A stretch of 48,434 bases of DNA from a virus. Its lineage: Duplodnaviria > Caudoviricetes. Under the pieces are notes generated by a model. That model was not told the origin of the DNA and made no database searches. It was given only the letters and a program-made list of their open reading frames with translations. Position numbers and translations under genes: made by a program. The stretch spans positions 1 through 48,434 of the IMG/VR virus record IMGVR_UViG_3300032259_000006. One strand, written 5' to 3'. Shown here piece after piece: positions 10,013-44,738 of this stretch. How positions within the stretch are numbered: the first letter of the stretch is position 1; each line of letters begins with the position of its first letter.

Positions 10013-10048
10013 GTGTTACAAAAAGTAACAGTGTTACAAAAAGTAACA
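10013..10048. repeat. Two exact tandem 18-bp repeats, each palindromic (operator-like)
   Basis: GTGTTACAAAAAGTAACA occurs twice; each copy contains TGTTAC-N5-GTAACA. Lies between the divergent late and early units. Confidence 0.9.
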
Positions 10049-10101
10049 CTCAAGATCAGCCCTCAAAATTGACCATCCACACAAAACCAGACATAAATGG
10101 C

Positions 10102-10130
10102 TTGATTTATATCGGGGAGGCGAATACAAT
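10102..10130 (+). promoter_or_regulatory. Sigma70-type early promoter
   Basis: TTGATT (10102-10107), 17-bp spacer, TACAAT (10125-10130). Confidence 0.75.
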
Positions 10131-10171
10131 TAGAACCGTACCAACAAGCACCACCAGCAGAGATCGCCGCC

Positions 10172-10414
10172 ATGCAAACGATAACCACTACCATCCACGG
10201 ACCCACCGACAAGCACGGAACCCGCATTTCCGCCCGAATTGAAGCCAGCACGACCGTCGGACCCTATGACTCCGCGCTGAGCAGCGAGGAAAACCACGCC
10301 GCAGCCGCTCGGGCATTGGCCGACAAGATGGAGTGGTCCGGCGAACTGGTAGGCGGCAGCACGACGCAGCGCCGCATGGTCTGGGTCTTTGTTGACGGCA
10401 GCCCACGCGCCTAA
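10172..10414 (+). CDS. Small early phage protein
   Basis: First gene after the promoter. GPT...GTRI.A and YD..LS.EENH..AA.AL..K..W.G.L patterns are recognisable from other phage early proteins. Confidence 0.75.
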   Translation: MQTITTTIHGPTDKHGTRISARIEASTTVGPYDSALSSEENHAAAARALADKMEWSGELVGGSTTQRRMVWVFVDGSPRA

Positions 10415-10467
10415 AAACACCACCACCAGCAGGCCGTCGGGATCGCCCGGCGGCACAGGAGACCGAA

Positions 10468-10587
10468 GTGAAAAGCCGTAAACCAATTCCCGCAGCGAAT
10501 CCCGAGAGCCACGCGCCGACGCTCAGCGGGCTGATCATATTTGTTTTGTTTTTCATCTGCGTCATGCTGTACGCCGCGCAATTCTGA
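10468..10587 (+). CDS. 39-aa single-pass membrane peptide (not in ORF track)
   Basis: AGGAG RBS then GTG. Reads MKSRKPIPAANPESHAPTLSGLIIFVLFFICVMLYAAQF and fills the gap between its neighbours. Confidence 0.65.
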   Translation: MKSRKPIPAANPESHAPTLSGLIIFVLFFICVMLYAAQF

Positions 10588-11255: not shown

Positions 11256-11331
11256 CGACGTGGCTACGGCCATACAGAAATCGACCGAACAAATTCACGG
11301 GCGGGATTGCCGCCCGCAGAGGACCGCCAAA

Positions 11332-11982: not shown

Positions 11983-12036
11983 GCACGCCACCAATCAAAC
12001 AAAGCGCGGCAATAGGGCCGCGCGGGAGATGATCCA

Positions 12037-13662: not shown

Positions 13663-14222
13663 CCGGGAACACCGGGAACAGCGGGAAGCGCCGGAAACGC
13701 ACCAAGGCCGAGCAGGAAACGCCAGAACTGGAGGCCATCCGGCGAAAGCTGCACTCGATCAGCGGCATGCAGGACGTGGCCAAATCGATGGGCCTGCGGT
13801 CTCAGGATGCCGCCCTGCACACGGCAACGGTGCTCGCCTTGGTAAGCCGCAGCAAATTGTCTGTCATATCTGCGGCCGCCCTGTGCTACGTCGCGGGCGC
13901 GCCTCTGACCGGCGCCCCAGCCATTGCGCGGGCCATCGGATGCGCTAACCAGTGGATTCCCGCCCGGCTGCGAGGGCTGGCCGAAGCTGGGCTGGTGGTG
14001 TGTTTGAAGGGGATTCCGGCCGACGGAAACTGGCCGACGAGGCGCTACATCCTGACGAAAAAGGGGCATGACCTTGTTGAGCAGCTTAGCGTGCCGAAGC
14101 CGCACACGCGGAGGCGCGCCTTGCAGCCAACGCCATCGCGCGTCGGCCAGCAGATGCCGGTAAGGGGTCAACGTGGACCGCTGAGCGGTGACGAAAAACG
14201 CGGGCAAAAAAAACCGCGATAG
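13659..14222 (+). CDS. Winged-helix DNA-binding protein (MarR-like)
   Basis: AIARAIG...ARLRGLAEAGLV...RRYILTKKG is a wHTH pattern. ATG 13659 is in an ATGA overlap. Confidence 0.65.
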   Translation: MTGNTGNSGKRRKRTKAEQETPELEAIRRKLHSISGMQDVAKSMGLRSQDAALHTATVLALVSRSKLSVISAAALCYVAGAPLTGAPAIARAIGCANQWIPARLRGLAEAGLVVCLKGIPADGNWPTRRYILTKKGHDLVEQLSVPKPHTRRRALQPTPSRVGQQMPVRGQRGPLSGDEKRGQKKPR

Positions 14223-14244
14223 CGAGGGGAGCGCTATCGCGGTT
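14206..14244 (-). terminator. Intrinsic terminator
   Basis: Perfect 13-bp inverted repeat AACCGCGATAGCG-N7-CGCTATCGCGGTT ending in T8 on the minus strand. Confidence 0.9.
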
Positions 14245-14297
14245 AAGCGCCAAGGGCAAGGAGGGAACCCTTGGCTGTCCACCACCACAGTAGATGC
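14206..14297 (-). ncRNA. Putative ~90-nt small regulatory RNA with three hairpins
   Basis: Bounded by a consensus-like promoter and an intrinsic terminator. Sequence AUCUACUGUGGUGGUGGACAGCCAAGGGUUCCCUCCUUGCCCUUGGCGCUUAACCGCGAUAGCGCUCCCCUCGCUAUCGCGGUUUUUUUU. No complete ORF inside. Confidence 0.7.
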
Positions 14298-14302
14298 GGC
14301 GA

Positions 14303-14331
14303 ACTATACCGATGCGGCCTAGTGGCGTCAA
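14303..14331 (-). promoter_or_regulatory. Sigma70-type promoter of the small RNA
   Basis: Minus strand TTGACG (14331-14326), 17-bp spacer, TATAGT (14308-14303). GATGCGGC direct repeats (14293-14300, 14311-14318) flank the -10. Confidence 0.8.
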
Positions 14332-14335
14332 CCCG

Positions 14336-14983
14336 TCACGACAAAAGATTTTCGCCGCCGCAATCCAGCCAGCCCGGAGCGGCGCTGTCGTCCCACGCGA
14401 TGCCTGAGTCGCCCCCGGCGCCGCCGTGGGCCTCCGCCCGGTGCCGCCTTGTCAAGTCCGCCATGCCCAGCCCCGTAGCGTCCGATAGCCCCACGGCCGC
14501 CAATAGAGCCGCTTCCGCCCGGTCATGGTCCCTCACCCGCGTGAATAGCTCCTGCCCCCAATAGCTGGAGGCGAGCAGCCGCGATGCGTTTTTGGGGTCC
14601 GCGTGCCCGGTCAATCCCGCCTTTGCCTTCCATGACGCAGGCTGCAACCACCGCCCTTCCAGCCCCATGACCGCAATGGTTGCGCGGATCGCGCCGCGGG
14701 AGTCGCCGAGGCTGGCCGCAGAAACGGTGCCCTGCCGGCCGGGGCCGCGCTGCGCGGACGCGCCGACCGCCTCCACCGTGACAATGGCCTCATCGGCGCC
14801 CTGCGTGGCGCGGGCAAGGATCTTCGCCAATCCCTTAGCGTCGATGCAGCGCTGCTTCCGGGTGCCACCGGGCAGGGCCATCGTGGGCATGTCCTCGCAA
14901 AGCGTCAGCCGGCCGCTGGCGTCGACCGCCGCGACCGCGCCGGTTAAGCCCGGATCGATGCCGATGGAGATGTAACTTTTCAT
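14336..14983 (-). CDS. RuvC-like Holliday junction resolvase
   Basis: IGIDPGLTGAVA, VTVE, P..WK and DHDRAEAALLA give the acidic residues of phage RuvC-like nucleases. Confidence 0.85.
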   Translation of the reverse strand: MKSYISIGIDPGLTGAVAAVDASGRLTLCEDMPTMALPGGTRKQRCIDAKGLAKILARATQGADEAIVTVEAVGASAQRGPGRQGTVSAASLGDSRGAIRATIAVMGLEGRWLQPASWKAKAGLTGHADPKNASRLLASSYWGQELFTRVRDHDRAEAALLAAVGLSDATGLGMADLTRRHRAEAHGGAGGDSGIAWDDSAAPGWLDCGGENLLS

Positions 14984-14989
14984 GGTTGA

Positions 14990-15480
14990 TTCGCCTGTGT
15001 GGTGGGGCCGCGCGCTGAACAGCGGCCGCGGAAAATGTCAGCGGAAAAATCTCAAGAAAAATCTCGATTCCTGAATCCCTTCCCTCATTACATATACCCT
15101 CGTTCCCTGTTCCCGGTCCGGCCAAGCTCCGGCTTGGTCGCCGGTGGCCGGGGAAACCGGGCACGAGGGTAACATATAGAATGTGTAATGTACAGAAATT
15201 TGCGTTTCCCGGTAACGCCTTTGCTTTCAATGGCTTACAGCACATTCATGACGTAGTGCGAGAGGTTTCGCACCTAAGCTGAGTTCCCGCTATTCCCAAA
15301 CTGTACAGAAAGTGATCAATTTTGCCTCGAATCCACACGACGACATTGGCGTAACCCATTGAAATGCAACGTTCCCACCGTTTTGGGAATTTCGGGAACG
15401 GACACCGGGTATTTTAAGCTTAAAGGAAATGTTTTACCGTTCGTCGGAACGGCGGATTCCGCAGTAGCGCGCGATGGCGG
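14990..15480. other. Non-coding region, candidate replication origin
   Basis: About 500 bp with no credible ORF and lower GC. Contains an imperfect inverted repeat (15225-15238/15351-15364), a direct repeat TGTACAGAAA (15189, 15302) and mostly converging TTCCC/GGGAA motifs. Confidence 0.5.
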
Positions 15481-15535
15481 CCCTGTGCCATGATCCCCCT
15501 GCACCCGAAATCCACCACGCAAACAGGGGAAAATC

Positions 15536-16270
15536 ATGGATCGCACATCCAAAATCGCTATCGCCACCATTGAACTGATCGCCTCCACCGGCATTCTCGC
15601 CGGGCTGCTCCTGCTCAATGACGAGCTTCTACTAATCGGCATCGTCGCGGCCATCGTCCGCGTGATGATCGCGCTGGCGAATCCACGCGACGCATCATTT
15701 GTCGACCGCTACGTGAGCGCGGGCGCGTCGGCCGTCAAGTGGGTGCTGGGCACGATCTTCATTGCCGCCGTCACGGCATGCGCCGGGCTGCTGTTGGCCG
15801 GCCGGTGGATCGTCAACACGTTGAAGACGCGCACCCTCGCCCTTGTCGATGCAGTGGCCACGGCCATGCCGCTGCGGCCCAATGAACCGCGGTGCGGCAC
15901 GCCCGGCAGCGCCCGGCGAGCGGCCCTTGAGCGCGCGGCGGTGAAAGAGTGCGCGGAGATCGAGCGGGCGGCACGGGCCGCAATCAAGAGGCGCCCGAAG
16001 CCCGTGCTTGAATCGGTATCCTTCGAGTTCGACGCGGGAAGCGCTTGGGTTTACAGGGCGACGCTGACAATGGCGCCTTGCACCAAGCTGCGCGCGCTCG
16101 GCTGCACAGTCGTGCAGGCTCAAACGCGCATCCCGGCGACCGAGCTGGCCGATACGAAGATGGGCTTGGATGAGCTGTTGTTTGCCGTCTACTCGAAGGC
16201 GGCGGATCAAGTGGTCAAGCACTGGGGAGAGACTGCCGAAAAGCACAAAGCCAGCAAAAAGCAGGCTTGA
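15536..16270 (+). CDS. Membrane protein (2-3 N-terminal TM helices)
   Basis: Hydrophobic N-terminal ~90 aa; AGGGGA RBS. Confidence 0.7.
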   Translation: MDRTSKIAIATIELIASTGILAGLLLLNDELLLIGIVAAIVRVMIALANPRDASFVDRYVSAGASAVKWVLGTIFIAAVTACAGLLLAGRWIVNTLKTRTLALVDAVATAMPLRPNEPRCGTPGSARRAALERAAVKECAEIERAARAAIKRRPKPVLESVSFEFDAGSAWVYRATLTMAPCTKLRALGCTVVQAQTRIPATELADTKMGLDELLFAVYSKAADQVVKHWGETAEKHKASKKQA

Positions 16271-16295
16271 CTCACCCGTCAAAAACGTCTAGTAT
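16267..16295 (+). promoter_or_regulatory. Sigma70-type promoter
   Basis: TTGACT, 17-bp spacer, TAGTAT, followed by ACACCACCACC (16304-16314). Confidence 0.75.
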
Positions 16296-16327
16296 TCTGT
16301 GCAACACCACCACCGAAGACCAAGAAC

Positions 16328-16690
16328 ATGACCAATCCATTCCGCTTGATCACCTGCTGGTGCTGCGGCTATACCGCGCCGCGGCTTGAGTTCTCCAGCG
16401 GCTACTGCCCTGCCTGCTGCCGCGACATGAACACGGGTGCGGTGCGGCCCGGATCAATCCCGACACGGTACGTGGACGAGCGGGAAATTCGTGGCAAATT
16501 TTTCGTTCTCCGCATGGCCCCAGAGTACGCCGCAAGCCGCATCCGCAGCGTCCACGGATCGTTGGCAAGCGCTGCGCGCGTGGCGGTGACGCAACCCGAG
16601 GGTGATCTTATCGTCACCGGCGCATCGCCTGACGGCCGGTGGTCGCTGGATCTTCTGATTACGCGCAATGAATACCCGGTGGCGAAATGA
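16328..16690 (+). CDS. Zn-ribbon-containing hypothetical protein
   Basis: CWCC...CPAC near the N-terminus. Confidence 0.6.
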   Translation: MTNPFRLITCWCCGYTAPRLEFSSGYCPACCRDMNTGAVRPGSIPTRYVDEREIRGKFFVLRMAPEYAASRIRSVHGSLASAARVAVTQPEGDLIVTGASPDGRWSLDLLITRNEYPVAK

Positions 16691-17113: not shown

Positions 17114-17340
17114 AGACCATTTCACGAATGATCCGAGAAACCGGCCTGCCTGACGCGGATGCAATGGCGGATTGGCTTGAACGCGAGCACCCCGGACTAG
17201 GAGAAAAGTACAAGACTCCATCGTCCGCGGTAGTCGGTGGGATCACGTGGCGCCAGACGCCATTCGGCTTCGCAAAGTGGGGAAAGGTCTATGGTGCGTT
17301 GTGCCGTGCCGAAGCCGCTGCCAAGGAGCAAGGCCAATGA
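17110..17340 (+). CDS. IRET/W..TPF paralogue family, copy 2
   Basis: MKTISRMIRETGLPDADAMADWLEREHPGL...ITWRQTPFG..KW. Confidence 0.85.
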   Translation: MKTISRMIRETGLPDADAMADWLEREHPGLGEKYKTPSSAVVGGITWRQTPFGFAKWGKVYGALCRAEAAAKEQGQ

Positions 17341-17606
17341 AAAGCATCCCAGAACTGATCCGAGAGACCGGCTTGCCCGACGCGGATGAGATGGCCGATT
17401 GGCTGGAGCGCGAACACCCTATGCTGGAGCGCGAATACCACGGGCTGGGCGGGGTGGGCGAGACTTCCGCGTTCGCAATATCCGGCGCGTTTGTGTGGCA
17501 CGAGACGCCATTCGGATCGGAGAAGTGGGCAAAGGTCTATTTTGAGCTGTGCCCTGCCGGAGCCGCTACCAAGGAGCAAGCCCATGACGCACATCAATCT
17601 GGTTGA
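17337..17606 (+). CDS. IRET/W..TPF paralogue family, copy 3
   Basis: MKSIPELIRETGLPDADEMADWLEREHPML...FVWHETPFG..KW; a tandem duplicate of copy 2. Confidence 0.85.
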   Translation: MKSIPELIRETGLPDADEMADWLEREHPMLEREYHGLGGVGETSAFAISGAFVWHETPFGSEKWAKVYFELCPAGAATKEQAHDAHQSG

Positions 17607-18087
17607 GCCGTTCCAGATGCTCAGCAAGCCCCTAATGGCCGAGTATCGACGGCTGCCGCGCATATTCACGGCCGTTCGTGAGCTGGAGGCGCAGGGCAAA
17701 ACCGCAGGCGACGTAGAGATCCCAGAGCACTACGTTCTGGGGGCGGGGCACGAGCGGTTTTTCTACCCTAAGATCGACTGGCTGCGCCGTCGTTACGCCG
17801 AAATCCGAGATGAGCTGATCAGTCGCGACTACATCCTCGATCCGACGCTATCGGCCAAGATCCTGAGCGACACGGAGAGCATAGGCGAAGGCTGGCGCAA
17901 GCCGTACAAGCCGACGCCCGACGAGATTTGCTTGAGCATGGCCCATCTGTGCGTCCGGTCTGGGCTGGACAGCGTAGCCGATGAGCTGGCGCGCGGGCTT
18001 GCGCCCGCCAAGGGCTTAGGGGCGGCGCGCAGCGTCCGCGTGGAATGGGAGCGTGGCCTTGTCGCGCTCGCGGGAGAAGACCAATGA
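17584..18087 (+). CDS. denV: T4 endonuclease V (pyrimidine-dimer glycosylase) homologue with altered active site
   Basis: MTHINL...LMAEYRRLPRIF...LGAGHERFFY compares with T4 MTRINL...LMAEYRELPRVF...LGAGHVTFFY. AAGGAG RBS. Confidence 0.85.
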   Translation: MTHINLVEPFQMLSKPLMAEYRRLPRIFTAVRELEAQGKTAGDVEIPEHYVLGAGHERFFYPKIDWLRRRYAEIRDELISRDYILDPTLSAKILSDTESIGEGWRKPYKPTPDEICLSMAHLCVRSGLDSVADELARGLAPAKGLGAARSVRVEWERGLVALAGEDQ

Positions 18088-20772: not shown

Positions 20773-20826
20773 GAAAGCACAGGTCGCGAATGGCTTTCGG
20801 GCGTCCGATTGATTAACTTGTTAGCT
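20767..20826 (-). mobile_element. Partial attC-like site A
   Basis: Right arm CCGATTGATTAACTT-GTTAGCT resembles the right arm of site C; the left arm is degenerate. Confidence 0.5.
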
Positions 20827-20845
20827 GCTTAATGTGAGGACAAAA

Positions 20846-21124
20846 ATGAGCAAAAAATTTGAGGAATGCTTTTGTGAACCCTGCCAGTTCTACCCCGACG
20901 CTTTTCATGTTAGCAGGCGCAAATATGACTCAGAACAGGCGGCAAAACTGATAGGCCGCGAGTGCGCCGAAGACGTGAAGGCTGGGGACTTGAAGCCTAA
21001 ATGGGTTCGATTCCAGTTTGCCGACGGATCATTGCGTGAAGAGTTTGGCTTGGATCACTGCTGGGCGGTTGTGCGGGAGGGAACGAAGAACGCTCAGCCG
21101 ACATGGGAATATGAGTGCAGCTAA
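20846..21124 (+). CDS. Hypothetical cassette-borne protein
   Basis: GAGGA RBS. Bracketed by GTTAGCT (20820) and AGCTAAT (21119). Confidence 0.7.
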   Translation: MSKKFEECFCEPCQFYPDAFHVSRRKYDSEQAAKLIGRECAEDVKAGDLKPKWVRFQFADGSLREEFGLDHCWAVVREGTKNAQPTWEYECS

Positions 21125-21436: not shown

Positions 21437-21636
21437 GCCCTGACTGCCCTTGTTGCGGTGAGTTGCTGGTACACGCAAATCTTGGAAACGGCACCGTAGA
21501 CACGTACTGCGAGGACTGCGGATGGCCCGACGAGTGCCGCGAACCTAACCCCAACTGCGTAATCTGCGGCCGGCCGGGAGTCGGCGTTTGTGGAGAAACA
21601 TGGCGCTGTGAAGACCATTGGCGTGATGGCGCATAA
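21433..21636 (+). CDS. Cys-rich Zn-binding cassette protein
   Basis: CPCC, CEDC, CVIC, CEDH. The ATG lies within GTTATGC and the stop within GCATAAC; alternative start at 21418. Confidence 0.7.
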   Translation: MRPDCPCCGELLVHANLGNGTVDTYCEDCGWPDECREPNPNCVICGRPGVGVCGETWRCEDHWRDGA

Positions 21637-21717
21637 CGGCTTTGATAAGCCGCGCTCCCACTGAGCAAGAAGAGAACTCCGACGCTTACCGGCGCCGGCT
21701 TGATTAAATTGTTATAA
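21631..21717 (-). mobile_element. attC-like site C (87 bp, canonical spacing)
   Basis: Minus strand: TTATAAC, 5 nt, AATCAAGC ... GCTTATC, 6 nt, GTTATGC, which is the R''-L''-L'-R' layout with the extra base in L''. Confidence 0.75.
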
Positions 21718-21730
21718 ACCGGAGTTTAAT

Positions 21731-21940
21731 ATGAAACAACCACCGTTAATTGATGAGTTACTTGATAAGAGCAATATGCTAGGAACCGACCAAGCCGAGA
21801 TAAACGGGCGCTGGTATATTGCAAAACCGCTTCCGTACTACGGCTGGCACAACATAGTGACGCGCGTATACCACGCAGGGCTTGTGCTGATTGGGCGCGC
21901 TTCTGCGTGGCAGTATGCCGAGGACAGGAAAGGTTTATAA
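21731..21940 (+). CDS. Hypothetical cassette-borne protein
   Basis: GGAG RBS; INGRWYIAKP motif. Bracketed by GTTATAA (21711) and TTATAAC (21935). Confidence 0.75.
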   Translation: MKQPPLIDELLDKSNMLGTDQAEINGRWYIAKPLPYYGWHNIVTRVYHAGLVLIGRASAWQYAEDRKGL

Positions 21941-21989
21941 CTACTGGATAGACACCGCTTTCGGTGCCATCAAATTAGGAAGTTGCGAA

Positions 21990-24265: not shown

Positions 24266-24474
24266 CCGCCAGAAAACAGAAGCCACGTGTTGGCACGATG
24301 GAGCGCGACCTGATCGATTCCGGCTGCATGGATGACTGGGACGAGGCCAGCAGGCTGTCGATACTGGTGTCCTCCGGCGCCGGCAACCGGGCAACAAGGC
24401 TCAAGCATCGCCGGCTGGTGAAGCGGGTTTCAGCCAAGTTAGCAAGGGCGCGAGCAAGGCGCGGAGAGCGTTGA
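24262..24474 (+). CDS. Small basic protein
   Basis: MTARKQKP...; ATGA overlap. Confidence 0.55.
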   Translation: MTARKQKPRVGTMERDLIDSGCMDDWDEASRLSILVSSGAGNRATRLKHRRLVKRVSAKLARARARRGER

Positions 24475-24499
24475 CAGCGACGCTCCGCGAGCGTAGTAT
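24471..24499 (+). promoter_or_regulatory. Sigma70-type promoter
   Basis: TTGACA, 17-bp spacer, TAGTAT, followed by ACACCACCACCA (24509-24520). Confidence 0.8.
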
Positions 24500-24534
24500 C
24501 CAGCGCAGACACCACCACCACACGGAGCCCCGCA

Positions 24535-24885
24535 ATGACAACAAAGGCGAGAATTAAGCCGGCCGCAGCGGCCCGGCTGCGTGGCGCCTGCGCCCCGTAT
24601 GCAAACCAGTTCTACCGCTGGCCGCCGTTGAACGCGCTCGGCCGCGCTACCGGGCTGAGCTATCACGTTATCGCCAAGGTGCTGAACGGAGATAGCCCGC
24701 ACAGCGCGGCGGTTTGCGGCGGAATTTCCCCCGTCGGCCGGCGGGTTCATCCCGCTGTTGCCGGCCCTGCATGGGGGTATCTTGTCTATGGCGAGGTGCC
24801 TCATTGGATTCGACGCGGAGCATCCGCACCCACCATACCGCGCAGCACGCCAGAGGATGACCTGTGGCCCGACGTTGCGTGTTAA
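24535..24885 (+). CDS. HTH transcriptional regulator-like protein
   Basis: LNALGRATGLSYHVIAKVLNG. GGAG RBS; first gene after the promoter. Confidence 0.6.
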   Translation: MTTKARIKPAAAARLRGACAPYANQFYRWPPLNALGRATGLSYHVIAKVLNGDSPHSAAVCGGISPVGRRVHPAVAGPAWGYLVYGEVPHWIRRGASAPTIPRSTPEDDLWPDVAC

Positions 24886-36452: not shown

Positions 36453-39400
36453 TCAGAATCGAACCGCGCCCTTGAGTTCATCCGCCAGCGACGCCGACAA
36501 GGCCATGCCCCCCTCGGCGCGCTCGCTGTACCGCTCACGGGCGCGGATCGACTGGCGGATCTTCTTATCAGGGCTTTCGCCCAGCGCCTCACGCAGCCGC
36601 ATGCGCGCCTCCCGATAGGCGGCCATGTCCCCGGCCATCTTGGCCAGCGCGGCAGCATTCAGAAGGCGCCGGCGCCGGTCGAGAATTCTGGACTCGTAAA
36701 GCCGCAGAGAGCTGTTGCGGTCGTACCTGTGCGAAACCCGATCCGGCGTTATGCCCATTGACTGCAAGGCGGTTTCCCAGCCTGAAATATCATCGACAAG
36801 CGGATCGCCACGGTAAGTATTCACGCCTTCGCTGGCGTACCGAATGGCGCGCAGCGCGTCACGGAACACCTTCGGCACCATCTTCTCGATCCCGCGCTCA
36901 ACCTCGCCATCATTGATCATTGACGCGCCAATGGCGCCGTTGGCAACAATGCCGAAGCCGGGGCCGGCGATAGTCTCCAGCCAGTATGCCGACAAGTCGC
37001 GACCCTCCAAATCCCTGTCAGGCGACCGGAACCAAAGCGAGTCCAGCGACACGCGGCTGTGAATATCGCCGCCGGTCGCCACGTTCAGCAGGCCGTGCGT
37101 AATCGCCCGCCCGCCCGTCTCGCCGGCAATGTCAGCGATGAAGTTCTGGTATTCGGTAGCAAAGTCGTATTCTTCGTCATCGTCGCCGAAGGCCGAGGCC
37201 GCGGCGTTGGCGACCATAGCCACCACGCCGAACAGCGGTAGCCCAGTCGTGCCGGCAGCGATGGCGTGCATGCCGAGCACACCAGTCAGCAGCCGCCGCG
37301 CTTGGGCGCGCTCCGCCTTCGTGTCGCCCTTGAATGACTTGTACAGGTTTCGCCACAGCAGGTAGCTCATGTTCAGGCTGTATTGCCGGAACATGAGCAG
37401 CACTTTCGCGGCGTTGCCTTGCATAAACCGCGCGCGGTTTGCGTTCTGGTAATCGAAGTGCGATTCATAGGTTGCGTCTCGCGCGTAGTCGATGGCCGCT
37501 TCGTGCTTCATGCCGGACTGCCTTGCCAGTCGGTAGGCGGCGACAGAAGTCACCTCGCGGTTCGCCACCTCGGCATGATGGAACAGGAACCCGACCGCCC
37601 GCATTGTTTTCTGCACACCGGGGCGGTAAGTGTCCATGTCGTTCTCGCTGGCGCCGGCAAGGTCCATTGTCATAGTTCTGTCGATGACGCCCTCGGCCTC
37701 AAGCTGCTCATAGGCCGCGCGCTCTTCGGCGTTCAGGCTGGCACGAATGTCGCCCTTGCCCTTGCTGTAGCCCTTGAGCGCCCTTGTCAGCTCGCGCGAC
37801 GTGCGCCGGAAGCCGAACTTTGATCCGATGACCGGCAGGGCGACAAGCGGCGTTTGGGTCAGGTTGACCAATGCTGCCGCCGGGGTGACGCCGAGATACC
37901 ACGCGAAGTTGGTGCTGGAAACCGTCGATACCCATCCGGCATTGCGCGGCTCCATGATCCATTGGTGCCGCTTGAGCATTTCGTTGAAGTAGTCCGCCGC
38001 GGCGTTGGCGTTCTCGTCGTTTTCGCCGGACATGCCCTTGACGTGATCTTTCATCTCCGACAGCGCACGCTCCAGCTTGTCGCTGTGCCGCAGGCGGCTG
38101 AATGCGAAGCTGCCGTGGAATGCTTGTTTCGCGAAGGCGCGCATGGCCTCGTTGCTGTAGCCGGCCCGCCCGGACCGGTGGATGAACTGCTTACGCACGC
38201 TCACATCCGGCATCGTGGTCAGCCACATCTGGTATACCTGATCTTTCACTTCCTCGGCAGCCTTGCCGCCACCGGATTCGTCGAGGATCTTTGTCACCTC
38301 GTTGACGAAGCCCGACGAAGCACTTACCAGCCCGGTCGATTGATCCAGCTTCTTACCGGAGCCTTCAATCTTCGCGCCCTGCTTTTTCAGCGCATCAATC
38401 GCGCGACGCTGGTCGGTCGGCGATTCGTACATCGTGAATAGCTTTTCACCGTCGGCATCGATTGCCGACACCCAATAGTCACCGAATCGAGCCAGCGGGA
38501 AATATGGGCCTTGAACTTTGGCGACCTCGAAGTGCAGGCGCAGCCGCTCCTTCATTGCTGTCTTGGCATTCTCGCTGCCTTCGATGCGATCAATGCGCGC
38601 CATTAGTTCTTCTTCCATGTCCGCTTGGCGTCGCACGTAAGCGTCGCGCACCTTGCGGTAAAGAACATGCGCCTCGCCATTGGTGTCGCGGCCAAGCTTC
38701 TCCCACCGCGCGCGAAGCCGGGCATACTCGCCCTTGCGCATCGGCGCCCGCGCGACGGCTTGTTCCAGTGATTTCAGCGTTGCGGCCTCATCGGCAGTTA
38801 GCTCTTTCTTGGCCTTGGCCCTGCCGTGAATCTTCTTGATCTTGGCCTTTAGCGCCACCACGTTGGCCGGCGCGAACGGCTTATCAGGGTCGATGCCGGC
38901 CAGCGTTGCATCGTGCATAAGGCCAGCCAGATCATCGCGAACAGCCTTGAACTTATTATTGAAGTCCCCCCATTCCGACGCGATCTTGTGCGCCTCATCC
39001 TGATAGCGCTTGCGGTCTGCAAACATCCGGTTCGCCACCGCGATGTACTCCTTGACCTGCGGCAGAATCTTCTGGCTTACGTCGCCGATGTGGCGCAGGC
39101 CAAGCAGCCCAAGCCACACAGACCGCAGCTTATCCGGTAGCGCGCGCAGCCTCTCCGCAGAGATCGCAGGCACGCTTTTGACCGCACTCTCTACCGCGTC
39201 AATCGTTCTTTGCCGATTCGATTCGCTGGAAGCGCCGCCACGGGAGAACAGCGCATCGGAAACGGGGCCGGCCACGCCGCCGCGCGAGAACGCAATGCGC
39301 GGATCGGCCGGGTCGAACGTGCCGCGGTTGCCGATGGCCGACTTGACCTGTGTCGGCTCGAAGGCGATGTAATGCACCGTGTTCTCGTCCATGCCCGGCA

Positions 39401-42400
39401 TTGCTTTACCGCGCACCCTCTCACTGCCGAATTTCCGGTTTACTGTGTAGTCAATGAACCCGTCAAAGCCTATTGCGGCAAAGGCGCGGCGGATCAGTTC
39501 CTTCGATACCAGCTTGCCGTCCTCGTCCGTTACATCGGCAAAATAGCCGTCAGACTCAAGGCTGCTGATAATCTCTTCGGCGGTTAATTCTTCACTGTCA
39601 CTTAATAGGTTCGCCAGCGTTTTATCGGCGTCAGCCTGAAAGACATCCTCAGATTCAAGTTCCTCGCGCAGCGCTGCCGCGAAATCAATAAGGCTTCCGC
39701 CTTCATCAATAATGTCGCCATCCTCGTCTTCTGTGTATTCGCGATCAAGGGTAGTCGGGTTATCGCCGCCAATCTCCACCGGGTTTTTAATCGAGAGATA
39801 AACCGGCATAGTTGCGCCTTCGTTGTCCATCATGGACTTCTTGGCCAGCGCCATCGCCGCGTCCTCGTCGTAATATTCCCCGGTTTCTTCGTCGATCTCA
39901 TTTTGCAGCCGCTCGGCTTCCAGCTCTATCTTCATCGACATATCCGGCCCCTCGCCTGCGTAGTTGTTGGCCACGTCGCCGCGCTCTGTCGTGAAATAGA
40001 AGCCCGCCCCCAAGTCGCTTTCCGGGTTTGAGTGCCTGCGGTCGAACGCCTCGAAGTTGCTGCCCGTGCCGTGGTACACCACTCGCGGCTCGCCATTTAT
40101 ATCGACAACCTTCGAGTCACCGAACCACCGCTTGAAGGCGGGGGTTTCAGTCACCGGCGGCGTGTCTTGGCGCATGATGCTCGGGTCGCCTGAGTCGAAC
40201 GTGCCGCGGGTGCCAACGGCCGACTTAATTTGGGTTGGCTCGAAGGCGATAACAGTGTCAGCAGCGATTTGACTGGAGTCAGCCACAGGCGCGTCTCTGA
40301 CGTTTCGGACCAAAACCCCGTCATATCCAAGTTTTCGCGCAAGCTTCGCTAAGGAGTCTGCGTCTGTCGCGTCGCCGATAGACTCAAGCGTGCTTCCGTC
40401 GATTGAAGCGCGCCTCTTCCGGACGGTCCTTGGCTTGGCGTCCTCAAAGAGTTCTGCGAGAAGCCCGTCGGTCGCCCGGTCCCCCGAAACCCGCTGCTGG
40501 TACAGCTTCTCAGTTTCGCGGCCATACACGGGCGCGTCGCCGTCGAGATTCGCCCAGTACCGGCCCTGCGCATCCACAATAAGCGGGTTTTTCAGCGCGA
40601 CATAAGAGGCGTACACATCCTCGCCGTACTGCTGCGCCACGTCGCGGGACGTTGAGAAATACGCGCCGCCACGTTCGCCGCGCGTGTCAAAGGTTTGGAA
40701 AGATTCTGCGGAGTACGCATTCGCATTGGTCCCGTGGTATACCACCAGCGGCTTGCCATTTTCATCGACAACCTCCGAGTCACCAAACCACCGCTTGAAC
40801 TCTTGGGTTTCAGTGACTTCGGTGGTGCCGTCCGACGAATACAGCGGGTGGCCTTCTGGGAAGGCTTCCGGGTTGCGCTTGGCTTGGGCGCGAATGTAGG
40901 TTTCAGAGTCGGCAAGAAGCTGATCGATCTCCGCTGACTTGAAGGTTTTGCGGAAACCGGCAGCCTTGAGCCACCTGCGGACAGCGGCGCGCACGCGGCT
41001 GATAAGCCTGCGCACCGTGCTTGAGTGCGCCCTGTGCTCCGCGATGTGCGCGATGATCTCCTGAACCCGCTCCTTTCCCTTGATGCCGGGATAGTTCTTG
41101 TCCACCGCGGCAGCCGCAGCGGTCACGCTGGCATCGCCGTTGGCTTCCAGTTCCCGGATCGTTTCCGTTATTCCCGCGAAGTCACCGGCAAGAACCGCCT
41201 CGACGCCGTAGTGCCCGATCAGCTCATGCGCAAGCACCACCTCGGCCTCTGCGCGCGATCCGATGTTCTGCGCGACAAGGTAAACCTTCCCGTCGTAGAG
41301 CATGCCGCGCGCGTCACTCGGCGCATTGTCAACCGGCAGATCGGCAGGGGTGGCGACCACCTCAACGGGCACATCACCGGCGATCTTTACCGCCATCTTG
41401 GCCAGCGCTGCCCGCGACATGCCGCCGGCAGCCTTGGAATCGTTGCGAGAAAATGAAATCCGCGGGTCCGCCGGGTCGAATGCGCCAGAGTTTTTATCGG
41501 CACCCGCTACCGGCTCCCCAGTGACGCGGGAGCGCACTTGCCCATTGATTGCAGACTTGGCCTGCGTTGGCTCGAAGAACGCATAGATCGTTGTTGGTGC
41601 GGTGCGGAGCCCGTCAAGACCTTCGTTGTAATGATCGCGCACGTTGTAGATGATGACGCCATCATGCCCTGCCGCGCGCGCCTCTTCGATCTTCTCTTCC
41701 GTTCCTCTCCAGCGTTGGCCCTTGCCGTTCACCCGCAGCGGATTCTTTATCGAAAGATACATCGGGACAACGCCGGGCTCGGCGTTCTGGTAATCGAACG
41801 CCCTTTCGTGGACGGCGTAACTGTTGGCCGTGGCCGAGTCTTTCGCGGCGAAAAACACGCTGCCGCGAGAGAATGCCTTAAACCCTTCGGAGAAGATCCC
41901 GCGCATGTCCGGCGCACCGTGGTGAACCACCAGCGGCTTGCCGAAGCTGTCGACAACCTTGGAATCGCCGAACCATCGCTTGAATTCAGGGGTTTCAGTG
42001 ACATCGGCGCCACTGCGAGAAAACAGCTTCGCGCCCTTGGCCGCGTCGCGCAAAGCCTTGCCGTCGTTCTTCTTGGCTGCGGGCTTCTTCTTTGGCGCCG
42101 CCTTCTTGGCAGGCTTGGGCTTGGCTTCTGCGTCAGGCGCGCTCTGCTTTGCAGCCGGCGCGGGATCGGGCTTTGCGGCCGGCTCCGCCTTTTCTTTCCC
42201 GCCTGCCGCGTCCCGCTGATTCAGCAGCGCCTCGCGCATGACCACGCCAAGTTCGCCGAAGGGCTTCTTGGCAGCATTCTTCGCCGCGCGGCCAACGGCA
42301 CCGCCAGCATTCGACCACCCGGCCTGCGCGACAGCTTCCGCGCGCTGATCTGCGGGCATGGCGTCCCACCACGCCGCGGCCGGGGCCGGCGCTTCGGCGG

Positions 42401-44738
42401 GGTCGATGCCGTCAATTGTCGTACCGTCGCCCAGCGCGTTCTGGAAACCGTTGCGGCGCAGGGTGATCGCCTTGCCGCTGGCTGCCGCCGCCGGCTTCCC
42501 GGTTGCGTCAAGATCGGCGACAGGGGACGCGGTGACAACCGGCTCCCCGTCCCGCTGGTCGATGCCGTCAATGCGGTATCGGCGCCCGCCGGTATCGAAC
42601 ACGTCGCCAGCCTTCGGCGCGCGCGACGGAGCCCCGGACCCTTTCCCAATGGTCGGTGCGGGAATGCCGCTTGATGCTTCCGCCTCGGCGGCAGGCGCCG
42701 GCTCGGGCGTCGGTTCTGGCGTCGGCGAAACATCTTTCGGCGCAGGAGATTCGGCCACGGCCTTTGCCGCCGCCGCGCGCCGGATCGGCTCGGCATAGGC
42801 GTCCTCGATTTCGGTGCCGCTTTGATCGGTGTAGACGCCCGGCTCATCCGTCGCGGCAACCTGCTCACCGCTCGCGAGGGTATGTGTCGGCGTGAAGTCT
42901 GGCGCAGCCGGAGCGGCTTCTTGCGCTGCGGCGGGGGCAGGCGCCTCGGCAGGCGGCTGAGTCGGAGTCTTGGCGACAGGCGGCGCTTGCGGTACGTCGG
43001 GGACCGCGGGCGCTGCATCCTGAGTTTCTTGCGTCTGCGGCGCGGTGACAACGCCAAAGCCGTTGCCGACCGGCACCACCTGCGGCGTGGCGCCAGTGCT
43101 CGCTGCGCGCTTGTAGGCCGCGGACGCTCTCGCGCCGCGCTCGCTTTTGAAGGGCTGGCCGTTGCCACGCACCTGCGGCGTCTGCGCCGCTGCGGCGCCT
43201 GCGGCCGCGACTGCCGGTGCCGGTGCCGGCGCGGCATCGGCAGCACCCGCGTCTTGTGCGGGCTGCCTCACTGGGAACGGCGGCGCCGGCCGGGCGGGCG
43301 CGTCTCCCGCTACGGCACCCGTGGCGAAGTCGACAAGGGGGGGCGACTGGGCCGGGCGGGCGGGCTGGCCCAGCGGCGGCGGTGCGCCCTCACCGGGGGC
43401 CAGTTCGACAGGCGCAGGCGTCGGCGTCGGCGCATCGAGCGAGTCTTTCATCCGTCGGGCGCCAGCGACAACCGCGTCAAGCGGGTCGCCGGAAGCCTCA
43501 AGCTGGTCTGCGATTGGATCGGGGCGCGGCGCCGCCGGCGGGGGGGGTGGGCGGCGGCTGGGGGGCTGCCTTGGCTCAAGCGGTGTGGCCGCTCCGAGCC
43601 GATCAACCAGCGGAGGCGCGTCCTGCCGGCGACGAGACACAGCACCAAGGGCGCCGCCGATCATGACGCCGCCCAAGCCTTCCGTCATGGCCGCGTTCAC
43701 AAGCCCCTCTGTGCCGCTCCGTGTCGGGTCGGCGAATTCCTGAATGGCTAGGTTCTGCGCAACCTGCTCGGAGCCGCCTTGGGCCGCCTCCTGAAGAAAC
43801 TCGGCGCCGCCACCGCGCGCCACGTTGGCCTTGACGGTCGCGCCGCCGATGCCGCGGGATAGCAGCGCTTCGGTCAGCCGGCCGCCCAAGGCGCCCAGCA
43901 TCGCTTGCGGTATGGCTGATTCCTTCATCGCAGACACGGCGGCTTGCTTGGCGAGAATGTCGCGCGCAAGGGTGGAGCGCTGCGCCTCGCTGAGTGAGGG
44001 CATGCCGTCGAGCAAGTCGCCGTAAAGCACCGAATAGGCCGGCGAGTCCATCAGGAACTTGTGGTCGTAGCTTTTGATTTCTTCTTCGATGCCGTGGCCA
44101 AGGTTGCCAAGCACCGTCGAAGTTTCTGCCGCGCCATAGGCCAGCGTGCCGGATACCTTATTCACGCTCATCATGGTCGCCGCGGCCGCCTTCTCCGCCG
44201 TCTCGCGCGTCATGCCCCGCAGCATCAGTCGCTTGACAGTGCCTTGCGCCAGCCCCTTGATCGGCCCGCCCGTGGCCACCGTGCCGGCAAGAAAGCCCAG
44301 CGCGTTGGCGCCAAGGTTTGCCCACGCGCGCGCGTCCGTCCACGCGCCGCCTGCGCTGTGCGTGCCGTCCTCGGCTTGGGTAATGAATTCTTGGCTCTGC
44401 GCCTGCTTCCACGCATCGGACTGCGTATCGCGCACCGACGCAGAGTAGTCGTAAAGGTCGGTAGCAACGCCGCGCGCCGCATCCGAATCGACCATTTCGC
44501 CGACAAGGTACGCCGTGCCGGCAAACGAATCGACGAAAGACGCGCCGACCTCATTCCCGAAATCCGCGCCGAAGCCCTGCTGCGCGGCCAGATCAAAGCC
44601 GCCCTCCAACTGGGCGGAATACTGCTGGCCATATCGCTGATTCCAGAAGGAGAGAGCTTCATCAGGCGTGAAGCCCTCCGGCCCGAGCCGTTCTCTGGCC
44701 GCGGACATAAAGGCGGACGGGCTGGGGATTTGTGCCAT
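36453..44738 (-). CDS. Giant polyvalent internal virion protein (3x ART-like, metallopeptidase, PLxRFG)
   Basis: 2761 aa. Three FKRWFGDS.VVD..G.P.VV.HG...FEPTQ.KSA modules, HELIGH (41211-41228) and YFPLARFGDY (~38490). Confidence 0.9.
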   Translation of the reverse strand: MAQIPSPSAFMSAARERLGPEGFTPDEALSFWNQRYGQQYSAQLEGGFDLAAQQGFGADFGNEVGASFVDSFAGTAYLVGEMVDSDAARGVATDLYDYSASVRDTQSDAWKQAQSQEFITQAEDGTHSAGGAWTDARAWANLGANALGFLAGTVATGGPIKGLAQGTVKRLMLRGMTRETAEKAAAATMMSVNKVSGTLAYGAAETSTVLGNLGHGIEEEIKSYDHKFLMDSPAYSVLYGDLLDGMPSLSEAQRSTLARDILAKQAAVSAMKESAIPQAMLGALGGRLTEALLSRGIGGATVKANVARGGGAEFLQEAAQGGSEQVAQNLAIQEFADPTRSGTEGLVNAAMTEGLGGVMIGGALGAVSRRRQDAPPLVDRLGAATPLEPRQPPSRRPPPPPAAPRPDPIADQLEASGDPLDAVVAGARRMKDSLDAPTPTPAPVELAPGEGAPPPLGQPARPAQSPPLVDFATGAVAGDAPARPAPPFPVRQPAQDAGAADAAPAPAPAVAAAGAAAAQTPQVRGNGQPFKSERGARASAAYKRAASTGATPQVVPVGNGFGVVTAPQTQETQDAAPAVPDVPQAPPVAKTPTQPPAEAPAPAAAQEAAPAAPDFTPTHTLASGEQVAATDEPGVYTDQSGTEIEDAYAEPIRRAAAAKAVAESPAPKDVSPTPEPTPEPAPAAEAEASSGIPAPTIGKGSGAPSRAPKAGDVFDTGGRRYRIDGIDQRDGEPVVTASPVADLDATGKPAAAASGKAITLRRNGFQNALGDGTTIDGIDPAEAPAPAAAWWDAMPADQRAEAVAQAGWSNAGGAVGRAAKNAAKKPFGELGVVMREALLNQRDAAGGKEKAEPAAKPDPAPAAKQSAPDAEAKPKPAKKAAPKKKPAAKKNDGKALRDAAKGAKLFSRSGADVTETPEFKRWFGDSKVVDSFGKPLVVHHGAPDMRGIFSEGFKAFSRGSVFFAAKDSATANSYAVHERAFDYQNAEPGVVPMYLSIKNPLRVNGKGQRWRGTEEKIEEARAAGHDGVIIYNVRDHYNEGLDGLRTAPTTIYAFFEPTQAKSAINGQVRSRVTGEPVAGADKNSGAFDPADPRISFSRNDSKAAGGMSRAALAKMAVKIAGDVPVEVVATPADLPVDNAPSDARGMLYDGKVYLVAQNIGSRAEAEVVLAHELIGHYGVEAVLAGDFAGITETIRELEANGDASVTAAAAAVDKNYPGIKGKERVQEIIAHIAEHRAHSSTVRRLISRVRAAVRRWLKAAGFRKTFKSAEIDQLLADSETYIRAQAKRNPEAFPEGHPLYSSDGTTEVTETQEFKRWFGDSEVVDENGKPLVVYHGTNANAYSAESFQTFDTRGERGGAYFSTSRDVAQQYGEDVYASYVALKNPLIVDAQGRYWANLDGDAPVYGRETEKLYQQRVSGDRATDGLLAELFEDAKPRTVRKRRASIDGSTLESIGDATDADSLAKLARKLGYDGVLVRNVRDAPVADSSQIAADTVIAFEPTQIKSAVGTRGTFDSGDPSIMRQDTPPVTETPAFKRWFGDSKVVDINGEPRVVYHGTGSNFEAFDRRHSNPESDLGAGFYFTTERGDVANNYAGEGPDMSMKIELEAERLQNEIDEETGEYYDEDAAMALAKKSMMDNEGATMPVYLSIKNPVEIGGDNPTTLDREYTEDEDGDIIDEGGSLIDFAAALREELESEDVFQADADKTLANLLSDSEELTAEEIISSLESDGYFADVTDEDGKLVSKELIRRAFAAIGFDGFIDYTVNRKFGSERVRGKAMPGMDENTVHYIAFEPTQVKSAIGNRGTFDPADPRIAFSRGGVAGPVSDALFSRGGASSESNRQRTIDAVESAVKSVPAISAERLRALPDKLRSVWLGLLGLRHIGDVSQKILPQVKEYIAVANRMFADRKRYQDEAHKIASEWGDFNNKFKAVRDDLAGLMHDATLAGIDPDKPFAPANVVALKAKIKKIHGRAKAKKELTADEAATLKSLEQAVARAPMRKGEYARLRARWEKLGRDTNGEAHVLYRKVRDAYVRRQADMEEELMARIDRIEGSENAKTAMKERLRLHFEVAKVQGPYFPLARFGDYWVSAIDADGEKLFTMYESPTDQRRAIDALKKQGAKIEGSGKKLDQSTGLVSASSGFVNEVTKILDESGGGKAAEEVKDQVYQMWLTTMPDVSVRKQFIHRSGRAGYSNEAMRAFAKQAFHGSFAFSRLRHSDKLERALSEMKDHVKGMSGENDENANAAADYFNEMLKRHQWIMEPRNAGWVSTVSSTNFAWYLGVTPAAALVNLTQTPLVALPVIGSKFGFRRTSRELTRALKGYSKGKGDIRASLNAEERAAYEQLEAEGVIDRTMTMDLAGASENDMDTYRPGVQKTMRAVGFLFHHAEVANREVTSVAAYRLARQSGMKHEAAIDYARDATYESHFDYQNANRARFMQGNAAKVLLMFRQYSLNMSYLLWRNLYKSFKGDTKAERAQARRLLTGVLGMHAIAAGTTGLPLFGVVAMVANAAASAFGDDDEEYDFATEYQNFIADIAGETGGRAITHGLLNVATGGDIHSRVSLDSLWFRSPDRDLEGRDLSAYWLETIAGPGFGIVANGAIGASMINDGEVERGIEKMVPKVFRDALRAIRYASEGVNTYRGDPLVDDISGWETALQSMGITPDRVSHRYDRNSSLRLYESRILDRRRRLLNAAALAKMAGDMAAYREARMRLREALGESPDKKIRQSIRARERYSERAEGGMALSASLADELKGAVRF

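Follow-up and report, generated by a model that had tools for sequence, protein, structure and literature searches.

A Predicted Small RNA of a Podovirus-like Phage with a Seed Complementary to the Phage's Own Early Leaders

Results

The Phage and the Setting of the Locus

The stretch of DNA analysed here (the window) comprises 48,434 bases with 62% G+C from one virus record whose completeness is rated at 58%; a 54 kb assembly, longer than the window, is on record for its proteins, and both sequencing runs that hold the window, X1 and X2, are sediment metagenomes; none of the runs listed for it is an RNA run, which has no bearing on expression. The phage is podovirus-like. Its minus strand encodes capsid, portal, terminase and a giant virion protein, its plus strand RdgC, Sak4, a helicase, a Cas4-like nuclease and a primase. 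Its capsid-named relatives (38-47%) are phages of Pseudoalteromonas, Xanthomonas, Stenotrophomonas and Pseudomonas, and our guess from these capsids is a proteobacterial host. Capsid relatives at 55-66% have virion genes in common with the phage and almost no early gene. Protein searches gave a best relative of 48% for the resolvase and relatives of at most 47% for Sak4, and the helicase and resolvase protein routes led to no viral loci. The early region appears to be present, because the missing part of the genome falls in the structural region. In agreement with a preliminary description of this DNA, which had remarked on the absence of an integrase from the window, neither an integrase nor an antirepressor was found among the ORFs scanned (67 with PHROG; 29 + 40 with Pfam) in this incomplete record.

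The unit under study lies on the minus strand between a resolvase gene and a convergent winged-helix gene (Table 1). The last 17 nt of the latter overlap the 3' end of the predicted RNA, and its stop codon falls inside the terminator. The winged-helix protein has no Pfam or PHROG match and no homologue. The 550 bp at 14984-15535 are non-coding, lack a sigma-70-like site and contain several inverted repeats as well as A/T-rich tracts; this region is a candidate for an origin or a late resolvase promoter.

Several features elsewhere in the window deserve mention. The 2,761-aa virion protein (36453-44738) contains three ART-PolyVal ADP-ribosyltransferase stretches, LPD39 and a DarB-like part. Cassette-end-like elements, which we take to be attC-like, lie between small genes at 20809-20830, 21634-21715 and near 21937-21968; at 21937-21968, contigs from X1 and from X2 merge with or diverge from the genome, a pattern suggestive of exchangeable gene cassettes. 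Four early genes (12525, 17110, 17337 and 19553; family D1) have a paralogous N-terminal 30-codon segment together with their Shine-Dalgarno (SD) regions, and one joint in run X1 skips 17316-18077.

Table 1. Features of the locus and leaders complementary to the seed
Feature	Position	Strand	Remarks
MarR-like winged-helix gene, 187 aa	13659..14222	+	Convergent; Atlas feature and structure leads
Predicted small RNA, ~90 nt	14206..14295	-	5' end at ~14295 inferred from the -10 box
Intrinsic terminator	14206..14244	-	13-bp stem (14244-14212), C-rich 7-nt loop (14231-14225), U8 tail
Hairpin 2	14249..14275	-	9 bp; 9-nt C/U-rich anti-SD-like loop (14266-14258)
G/U-rich seed, RNA nt 7-17	14279..14289	-	Perfect 8-11 nt complement of six leader sites
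Sigma-70-type promoter TTGACG-17-TATAGT	14303..14331	-	10/12 consensus; starts 4 nt past resolvase stop
RuvC-like Holliday junction resolvase gene, 215 aa	14336..14983	-	phrog_1770, E 1e-20; small RNA unit in its 3' region
Leader behind promoter 10102-10130	10137..10174	+	8-nt match; tag 23 nt before ATG 10172; rank 11/59, -7.3 kcal/mol
Internal leader	10418..10470	+	9-nt match; tag 50 nt before GTG 10468 (39-aa membrane peptide); -10.1 kcal/mol
Resolvase leader	14981..15005	-	8-nt match; tag 22 nt before ATG; -7.8 kcal/mol
Leader of ORF 15536-16270	15511..15538	+	8-nt match; tag 24 nt before ATG; -7.5 kcal/mol
Leader behind promoter 16267-16295	16302..16330	+	9-nt match; tag 23 nt before ATG 16328; no clear SD; rank 3/59, -10.7 kcal/mol
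Leader behind promoter 24471-24499	24506..24537	+	11-nt match at 24512-24522; tag 25 nt before ATG; rank 1/59, -14.7 kcal/mol

Promoter, Fold and Terminator of the Unit

The promoter, the terminator and the complementary sites are all present where the preliminary description had placed them. On the minus strand, the -35 box TTGACG occupies 14331-14326 and the -10 box TATAGT 14308-14303. Our promoter scan covered positions 1-45,900; it found 10 promoter-like sites, with about 10 expected from shuffles, so that their count is not above chance. The score of 10/12 was reached only by the small RNA promoter and by the plus-strand site at 24471, which are tied best in the 45.9 kb scanned. Four of the sites lie between genes and are oriented so as to read into a transcript (10102, 16267 and 24471 rightward, 14331 leftward); the six others fall in ORFs or face against them.

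Some sequence details at these promoters may be recorded here. The trinucleotide GCA follows the -10 box by five bases at 14331, 16267 and 24471. A direct repeat of GCCGCATC, starting at 14318 and 14300 on the minus strand (14295-14319), flanks the -10 box of the small RNA promoter and is a possible regulator site. Inverted repeats lie in the spacer of the 24471 promoter and over the -35 box of the 16267 promoter. A 17-bp palindrome (TGTTAC-AAAAA-GTAACA) that occurs nowhere else in the window is present in two tandem copies at 10014-10050, in the interval separating the leftward packaging genes from promoter 10102; it is likely an operator, perhaps for the winged-helix protein.

The predicted RNA (14295-14206) folds at -43.1 kcal/mol, with z = -6.19 and 0/200 shuffles equal to it; the opposite strand folds more weakly, at -37.4. 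Three hairpins had been proposed for it. The first hairpin as originally drawn, with a 4-bp stem and an 8-nt open loop, would yield -35.9 kcal/mol rather than the minimum, and the second is present with a 9-bp stem and a 9-nt loop instead of an 8-bp stem. In the minimum fold, the seed lies partly inside a weak 5' hairpin (14294-14278) with a 5-nt loop and a 6-bp stem, three of whose pairs are G-U. The seed is thus half paired, and opening it is predicted to cost 4.3-4.8 kcal/mol. The other two loops had been likened to anti-SD sequences, and indeed both are C/U-rich and, judged by pairing probabilities, unpaired. The terminator stem is the longest among the 49 terminator-like sites listed, and the unit's terminator is the sole one found for resolvase transcripts. 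Two plus-strand leader hairpins that follow A-rich tracts (11296-11318 and 12004-12023) score as minus-strand terminators.

Strain Variation Points to the Minus Strand

A related strain in run X2 differs from the window at 17 positions over 14129-14607. A single change falls in the 126-nt unit, compared with 16 in 353 flanking nt (Fisher p 0.037, from one strain), and the promoter, the seed and both loops are unchanged. The one change in the unit, at 14243, affects a pair of the terminator stem: read on the minus strand, A-U becomes G-U, and on the plus strand a mismatch would result. In the neighbouring genes, 14 of 17 strain changes fall on third codon positions (4/4 in the winged-helix gene). 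Because the changes are mostly third-position, the coding region of the resolvase gene is taken to extend as far as its stop, which precedes the -35 box by 4 nt, and that of the winged-helix gene at least to 14177.

Two plus-strand readings were considered and rejected. In one, an SD-like loop and the tag described below would serve as the leader of a 38-codon ORF at 14294; the strain changes hit first positions of that ORF and third positions of the resolvase. In the other, GGA loops would act as a CsrA sponge, and here promoter, U tract and strain change all indicate the minus strand.

Comparison with RNA Families and Search for Homologues

The unit had been described as unlike any known RNA family, and a search of Rfam at gathering level accordingly returned none. 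At E-value level, five of seven matches in 801 nt are to bacterial small RNA families on the minus strand over the unit. ErsA (Pseudomon-1, RF01719) scores 31.6 bits against a cut-off of 50 bits (E 3.6e-4 for the 801 nt, 0.022 for the whole window), which is the best Rfam E-value in the genome and sub-threshold; ar7 (RF02342) scores 29.9 bits against a cut-off of 60 bits. The ErsA-model score of the unit was reached by 0/53 control phage records, the best of which scored 24.4 and is a bare terminator; a control match in G012 (L556) was discarded as a bare terminator with a C-rich loop. We read the likeness to ErsA and ar7 as a shared build (a G/U-rich 5' part, C-rich hairpin and terminator loops and a U tail) rather than as membership of either family. 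The 5' hairpin may resemble a type V-A CRISPR repeat, as a solitary-repeat RNA anti-CRISPR would; Rfam gave no CRISPR-repeat match for the unit.

Beyond the one near-identical strain, no homologue of the unit was found by any route. Searching 351 nt against 50,697 phage records with blastn gave four chance matches only. Pattern scans of viral contigs (4, 120 and 41 loci, the 120-locus scan covering 13/64 parts) and of genome contigs (91 loci) uncovered none combining promoter, fold and terminator, and scans of metagenome contigs (0 and 23 loci) yielded no independent homologue, their locus L538 being identical to the window's unit and lying on a contig as long as the window. Two models of the unit, R1 and R2, were each built on one sequence. 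R2 detected the unit in 0/67 other phage records, and its scores did not exceed 16 bits in any of 91 genome loci, of 63 pattern loci or of 100 among the 120 viral-scan loci. Stand-alone promoter-to-terminator units of 50-60 nt with unrelated sequence were seen in related phages (L190:2412, G019; L023:6270).

The Seed Matches Leaders behind the Three Rightward Promoters

The small RNA unit and its putative targets were chosen independently, the former by its tied-best promoter and longest terminator stem, the latter by the three intergenic rightward promoters. Within the first 30 nt behind these promoters, the seed finds perfect matches of 8, 9 and 11 nt. A match of 8 nt on all three leaders is also reached by 16/9,484 other 90-nt segments, located in two places, and by 6/5,000 dinucleotide shuffles of the RNA. 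When only the first 21 nt are shuffled with dinucleotides kept, 116/5,000 sequences reach it; the match is thus less rare than it seems, because these nucleotides are G/U-biased. A G/U run at 13990-14000 on the coding strand of the winged-helix gene, probably Val codons, complements the three leaders as well as the small RNA does.

Accessibility-aware predictions of binding were made for 59 hand-picked starts, one of which, 21107, is no start codon. The promoter-headed leaders take places 1, 3 and 11 among the 59 (rank-sum p 0.0016). Binding to -7 kcal/mol is predicted for 11/49 early or replication leaders and for 0/10 structural-gene leaders, and 0/300 shuffled leader sets bind as well. Measured against shuffled controls, the proposed match of seed and leaders is supported beyond chance. 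Four of the six listed sites bind at only -7 to -10 kcal/mol by prediction. Neither anti-SD loop prefers the promoter-headed leaders (rank-sum p 0.52 and 0.18). The strongest valid sites of these loops fall on the SD regions of 23996, 20479 and 24262; the top-ranked site of loop 2, at 21107, is void since that position is no start codon.

The best predicted target heads the replication operon. It is a previously unannotated gene of 116 aa (24535-24885) for a Cro/CI-like helix-turn-helix (HTH) protein, whose nearest Atlas clusters are of the Cro/CI type (score 0.93, a lead only).

A C/A-Rich Leader Tag at a Fixed Distance from Start Codons

A CACCAC tag complementary to the seed is present in each of the three early leaders headed by a promoter. 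Counted as an 8-mer, the tag occurs 8 times genome-wide where 2.7 occurrences are expected (p = 0.0065), and it is not among the 25 most enriched rows; its placement, not its abundance, is the non-random feature. In a test on 60 starts, to which two real starts had been added, the tag was found in the 60 nt upstream of seven, and in five of these it lies 22-25 nt before the start codon (p 0.0016 versus uniform placement, a value that is too optimistic because the three promoter leaders are short and narrow the possible spacing). The distance from tag to -10 box varies, and two of the five tags at 22-25 nt are without a promoter-like site upstream. The six other sense-strand copies of CACCACCA on the plus strand all lie in leaders (6/6). 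A position at a fixed distance 5' of the SD zone favours, as far as sequence can tell, a translation enhancer over a DNA operator. Each leader holds only 1-2 ACA triplets, a motif that matters for the targets of GcvB.

The tag is not peculiar to this phage. Unrelated phages commonly carry CACCACCAC just behind sigma-70 promoters: when 13/64 parts of a viral collection were scanned for a promoter followed by the tag, 122 loci emerged, many of them plainly early promoters of such phages and 20 with a strong promoter in G+C-rich DNA, and some unrelated phage records carry the tag behind 10-11 promoters within 20 kb. Across the collection, promoter plus tag and promoter plus seed are about equal in number (~640 versus ~600), and the strong-promoter, G+C-rich subsets stand at 20/122 versus 10/106 (p 0.17). 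Similar leaders occur in two capsid relatives, and the strict promoter-plus-tag pattern was found in 0/46 records. The seed would bind the best foreign leaders at a predicted -12 to -14 kcal/mol. None of the tag-bearing records searched has a matching RNA; among the 122 loci, 80 were searched with the less sensitive R1, and R2 was applied to 21 of their records. Being so common behind promoters of unrelated phages, the tag needs no small RNA and need not have evolved as the target of one. The match of seed and leaders may have arisen as a side effect of a seed directed against other C/A-rich mRNAs.

Four unrelated phages (L280, L324, L326 and L335) have dense arrays of strong sigma-70 promoters, many of them leaderless with ATG at +1, followed by Thr/His-codon CAC/ACC runs; in L324, the tag sits inside a small hairpin at 10 promoters.

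Discussion

A Putative Brake on Early Genes

What the DNA itself displays is a set of promoter and terminator motifs, a fold, complementarity and spacing. How might these elements work together? The explanation that we favour, with evenly balanced confidence, is that the unit encodes a trans-acting small RNA similar to GcvB and DapZ, furnished with two anti-SD loops, that damps the phage's own early genes. The sRNA reading fits with the fixed distance of the tag from start codons and with the finding that the best predicted target encodes an HTH regulator. We envision a scenario whereby the RNA is transcribed by host sigma-70 polymerase as soon as infection begins, alongside transcription from the three rightward early promoters, and, being compact and capped by a strong terminator, accumulates. 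The unstructured C/A tag would act as a ribosome-loading element, either an enhancer or a standby site, as in GcvB targets. Pairing would begin at the 5-nt loop and unzip the weak first stem, probably with the assistance of Hfq on the U8 tail; Hfq prefers U tails. Pairing of seed and tag would then block ribosome loading and lower the translation of early genes, and the two C/U loops may cover G-rich SD sites as well, as in AbcR1/2. Build-up of the RNA would in this way restrain, with a delay, the genes that come first in the early operons, most strongly the Cro/CI-like gene preceding the replication genes, and also the resolvase gene, with which the unit shares its 3' end.

Does the unit go beyond damping? 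The preliminary description had suggested one trans-acting RNA that silences several operons together as a repressor or immunity switch. For its first part, a self-contained RNA gene with a seed that matches several leaders of the same phage, shuffles, binding ranks and spacing lend support beyond chance. The repressor or immunity switch, by contrast, finds no support, given that the tag is common behind promoters of unrelated phages; the anti-SD loops show no preference for promoter leaders. We give little credence to a master repressor whose anti-enhancer seed and anti-SD loops would shut the first genes of three early operons, hold an integrase-free carrier state and exclude foreign phages bearing the tag.

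Alternative Explanations

Alternatively, the unit may encode a genuine small RNA aimed mainly at mRNAs of the host or of other phages by means of its anti-enhancer seed and two anti-SD loops. It would then block translation initiation in general, as GcvB, ErsA or AbcR1/2 do, and the match with the phage's own leaders would merely follow from the abundance of C/A-rich leaders. We consider this unlikely, yet it accounts for a good deal: ErsA and ar7 are the best Rfam leads, the region of the terminator loop matches the AbcR aSD2 motif at 7/8 nt (as given in PMC8844928), the anti-SD loops do not prefer the phage's promoter leaders and the tag is generic. Moreover, the characterised trans-acting phage RNAs PreS and DicF are described as targeting host mRNAs (PMC12197685). 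On the other hand, full pairing of 11 nt with the leader of the phage's own replication operon would be self-harming unless selected, the GGU repeats of the seed fit the phage's CAC tag exactly and the ErsA score lies under the gathering cut-off.

A cis-antisense RNA of the lambda OOP type, which would overlap the 3' end of the winged-helix gene and destabilise its mRNA, is in our view distinctly improbable. The stop codon of that gene lies within the terminator, and the hairpin has no plus-strand U tract, so that a plus-strand transcript probably reads through the whole unit; OOP itself is, according to PMC12197685, a 77-nt RNA with its own promoter that acts on cII via RNase III. The overlap here comprises only 17 nt of coding sequence, however, and the seed match and the two C-rich loops would be left unexplained. 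Cis action of this kind can coexist with the damping of early genes in trans.

There is also a small chance that the locus is nothing but the terminator and 3' untranslated region of the resolvase gene, with promoter and seed match arising by coincidence. The equality of the promoter-like site count with the shuffle mean speaks for this, as do the orphan status of the sequence and the selection of the finding from many features. Against it, a 10/12 promoter, a second stable hairpin, a leader match reached by 0.1-0.2% of shuffles and an Hfq-type profile would have to coincide within 126 nt, and the unit has accumulated fewer strain changes than its flanks.

Finally, it is very improbable that the tag is a DNA operator for a phage HTH protein, downstream of all four good promoters and with the RNA merely co-regulated: at the rightward promoters it does start 10, 11 and 19 nt past the -10 box, and at the small RNA promoter 14 nt past it, inverted, and the phage encodes winged-helix, Cro/CI-like and possibly ribbon-helix-helix proteins, but the tag is non-palindromic, always on the sense strand of leaders and common in unrelated phages, it tracks the start codon rather than the promoter and is present without a promoter-like site, and the tandem palindrome at 10014-10050 is the better operator candidate.

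Relation to Known Small RNAs

A U8 tail after a strong hairpin would be compatible with the class of Hfq-dependent small RNAs. In Salmonella, GcvB is described as silencing C/A-rich translation enhancers (PMC3879156), and DapZ as an 80-nt RNA that is transcribed from a promoter of its own within a 3' region and bears a seed like that of GcvB (PMC8383071). The unit resembles them in its size class (80-90 nt) and in having a G/U-rich seed for C/A-rich elements upstream of SD sequences in several leaders, which in our case is a prediction. Like DapZ, a type I 3'-UTR small RNA, it has its own promoter at the 3' end of a gene and a terminator common to both, here at the level of motifs; the promoter starts 4 nt past the resolvase stop with no other terminator between. 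It differs in being phage-encoded, in its predicted targeting of the phage's own genes and in its two added anti-SD loops. The seeds differ as well: the unit sets a GGU repeat against CAC repeats, whereas DapZ and GcvB sites are ACA-rich, and the Rfam model of GcvB gave no match at gathering level or at E up to 10.

ErsA of Pseudomonas, reported as a sigma-22-driven, Hfq-aided RNA in PMC8395346 and PMC5819304, can be aligned at full length below threshold: both have a G/U-rich 5' region, a hairpin with a C-rich loop, a short linker and a terminator with a C-rich loop. The stems of the unit match those of ErsA in pairing and little in sequence, and the promoter is of the sigma-70 type instead of sigma-22. 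The likeness may be architectural, because ar7 scores almost as high. With AbcR1/AbcR2 and NfeR1 of Sinorhizobium and with ar7, the unit has in common two exposed C/U-rich anti-SD motifs, one of them in a hairpin loop; in AbcR1/2, two such motifs are said to be used independently (PMC8844928). Unlike AbcR1/AbcR2, the unit places one motif in the terminator loop and adds a separate G/U seed.

Among phage RNAs, c4, sar, OOP, VpdS, PreS and DicF are described in PMC12197685, a supplementary table of which lists 38 uncharacterised phage small RNAs; the characterised ones described in this review have either a single phage message as their target, in cis or in trans, or messages of the host. There, c4 (P1/P7) and sar (P22) of temperate phages each act on one antirepressor message (PMC12197685). 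By prediction, the unit would be, as they are, a small phage-encoded RNA that acts on translation by means of loop-borne complementarity to a leader of the phage itself. It differs in matching several unlinked leaders and in that no antirepressor or integrase was found among the ORFs scanned, and the Rfam C4 family gave no match. It resembles lambda OOP in its own promoter and terminator and in its convergent arrangement overlapping the 3' end of a regulator gene (here an Atlas lead), and differs in overlapping only 17 coding nt and carrying seeds of the trans type.

The open-access literature, with subscription work mostly outside it, yielded no phage small RNA aimed at several unlinked leaders of its own genome. 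The unit is one orphan example so far, as judged from sequence searches. If the favoured explanation holds, a single RNA braking several unlinked early operons would represent a post-transcriptional counterpart of the Cro/CI circuit, and it would supply a function for the C/A-rich tags behind many phage early promoters. Compared with the systems above, the logic of the seed is known, the combination of elements and the target set are unusual, and the sequence is new.
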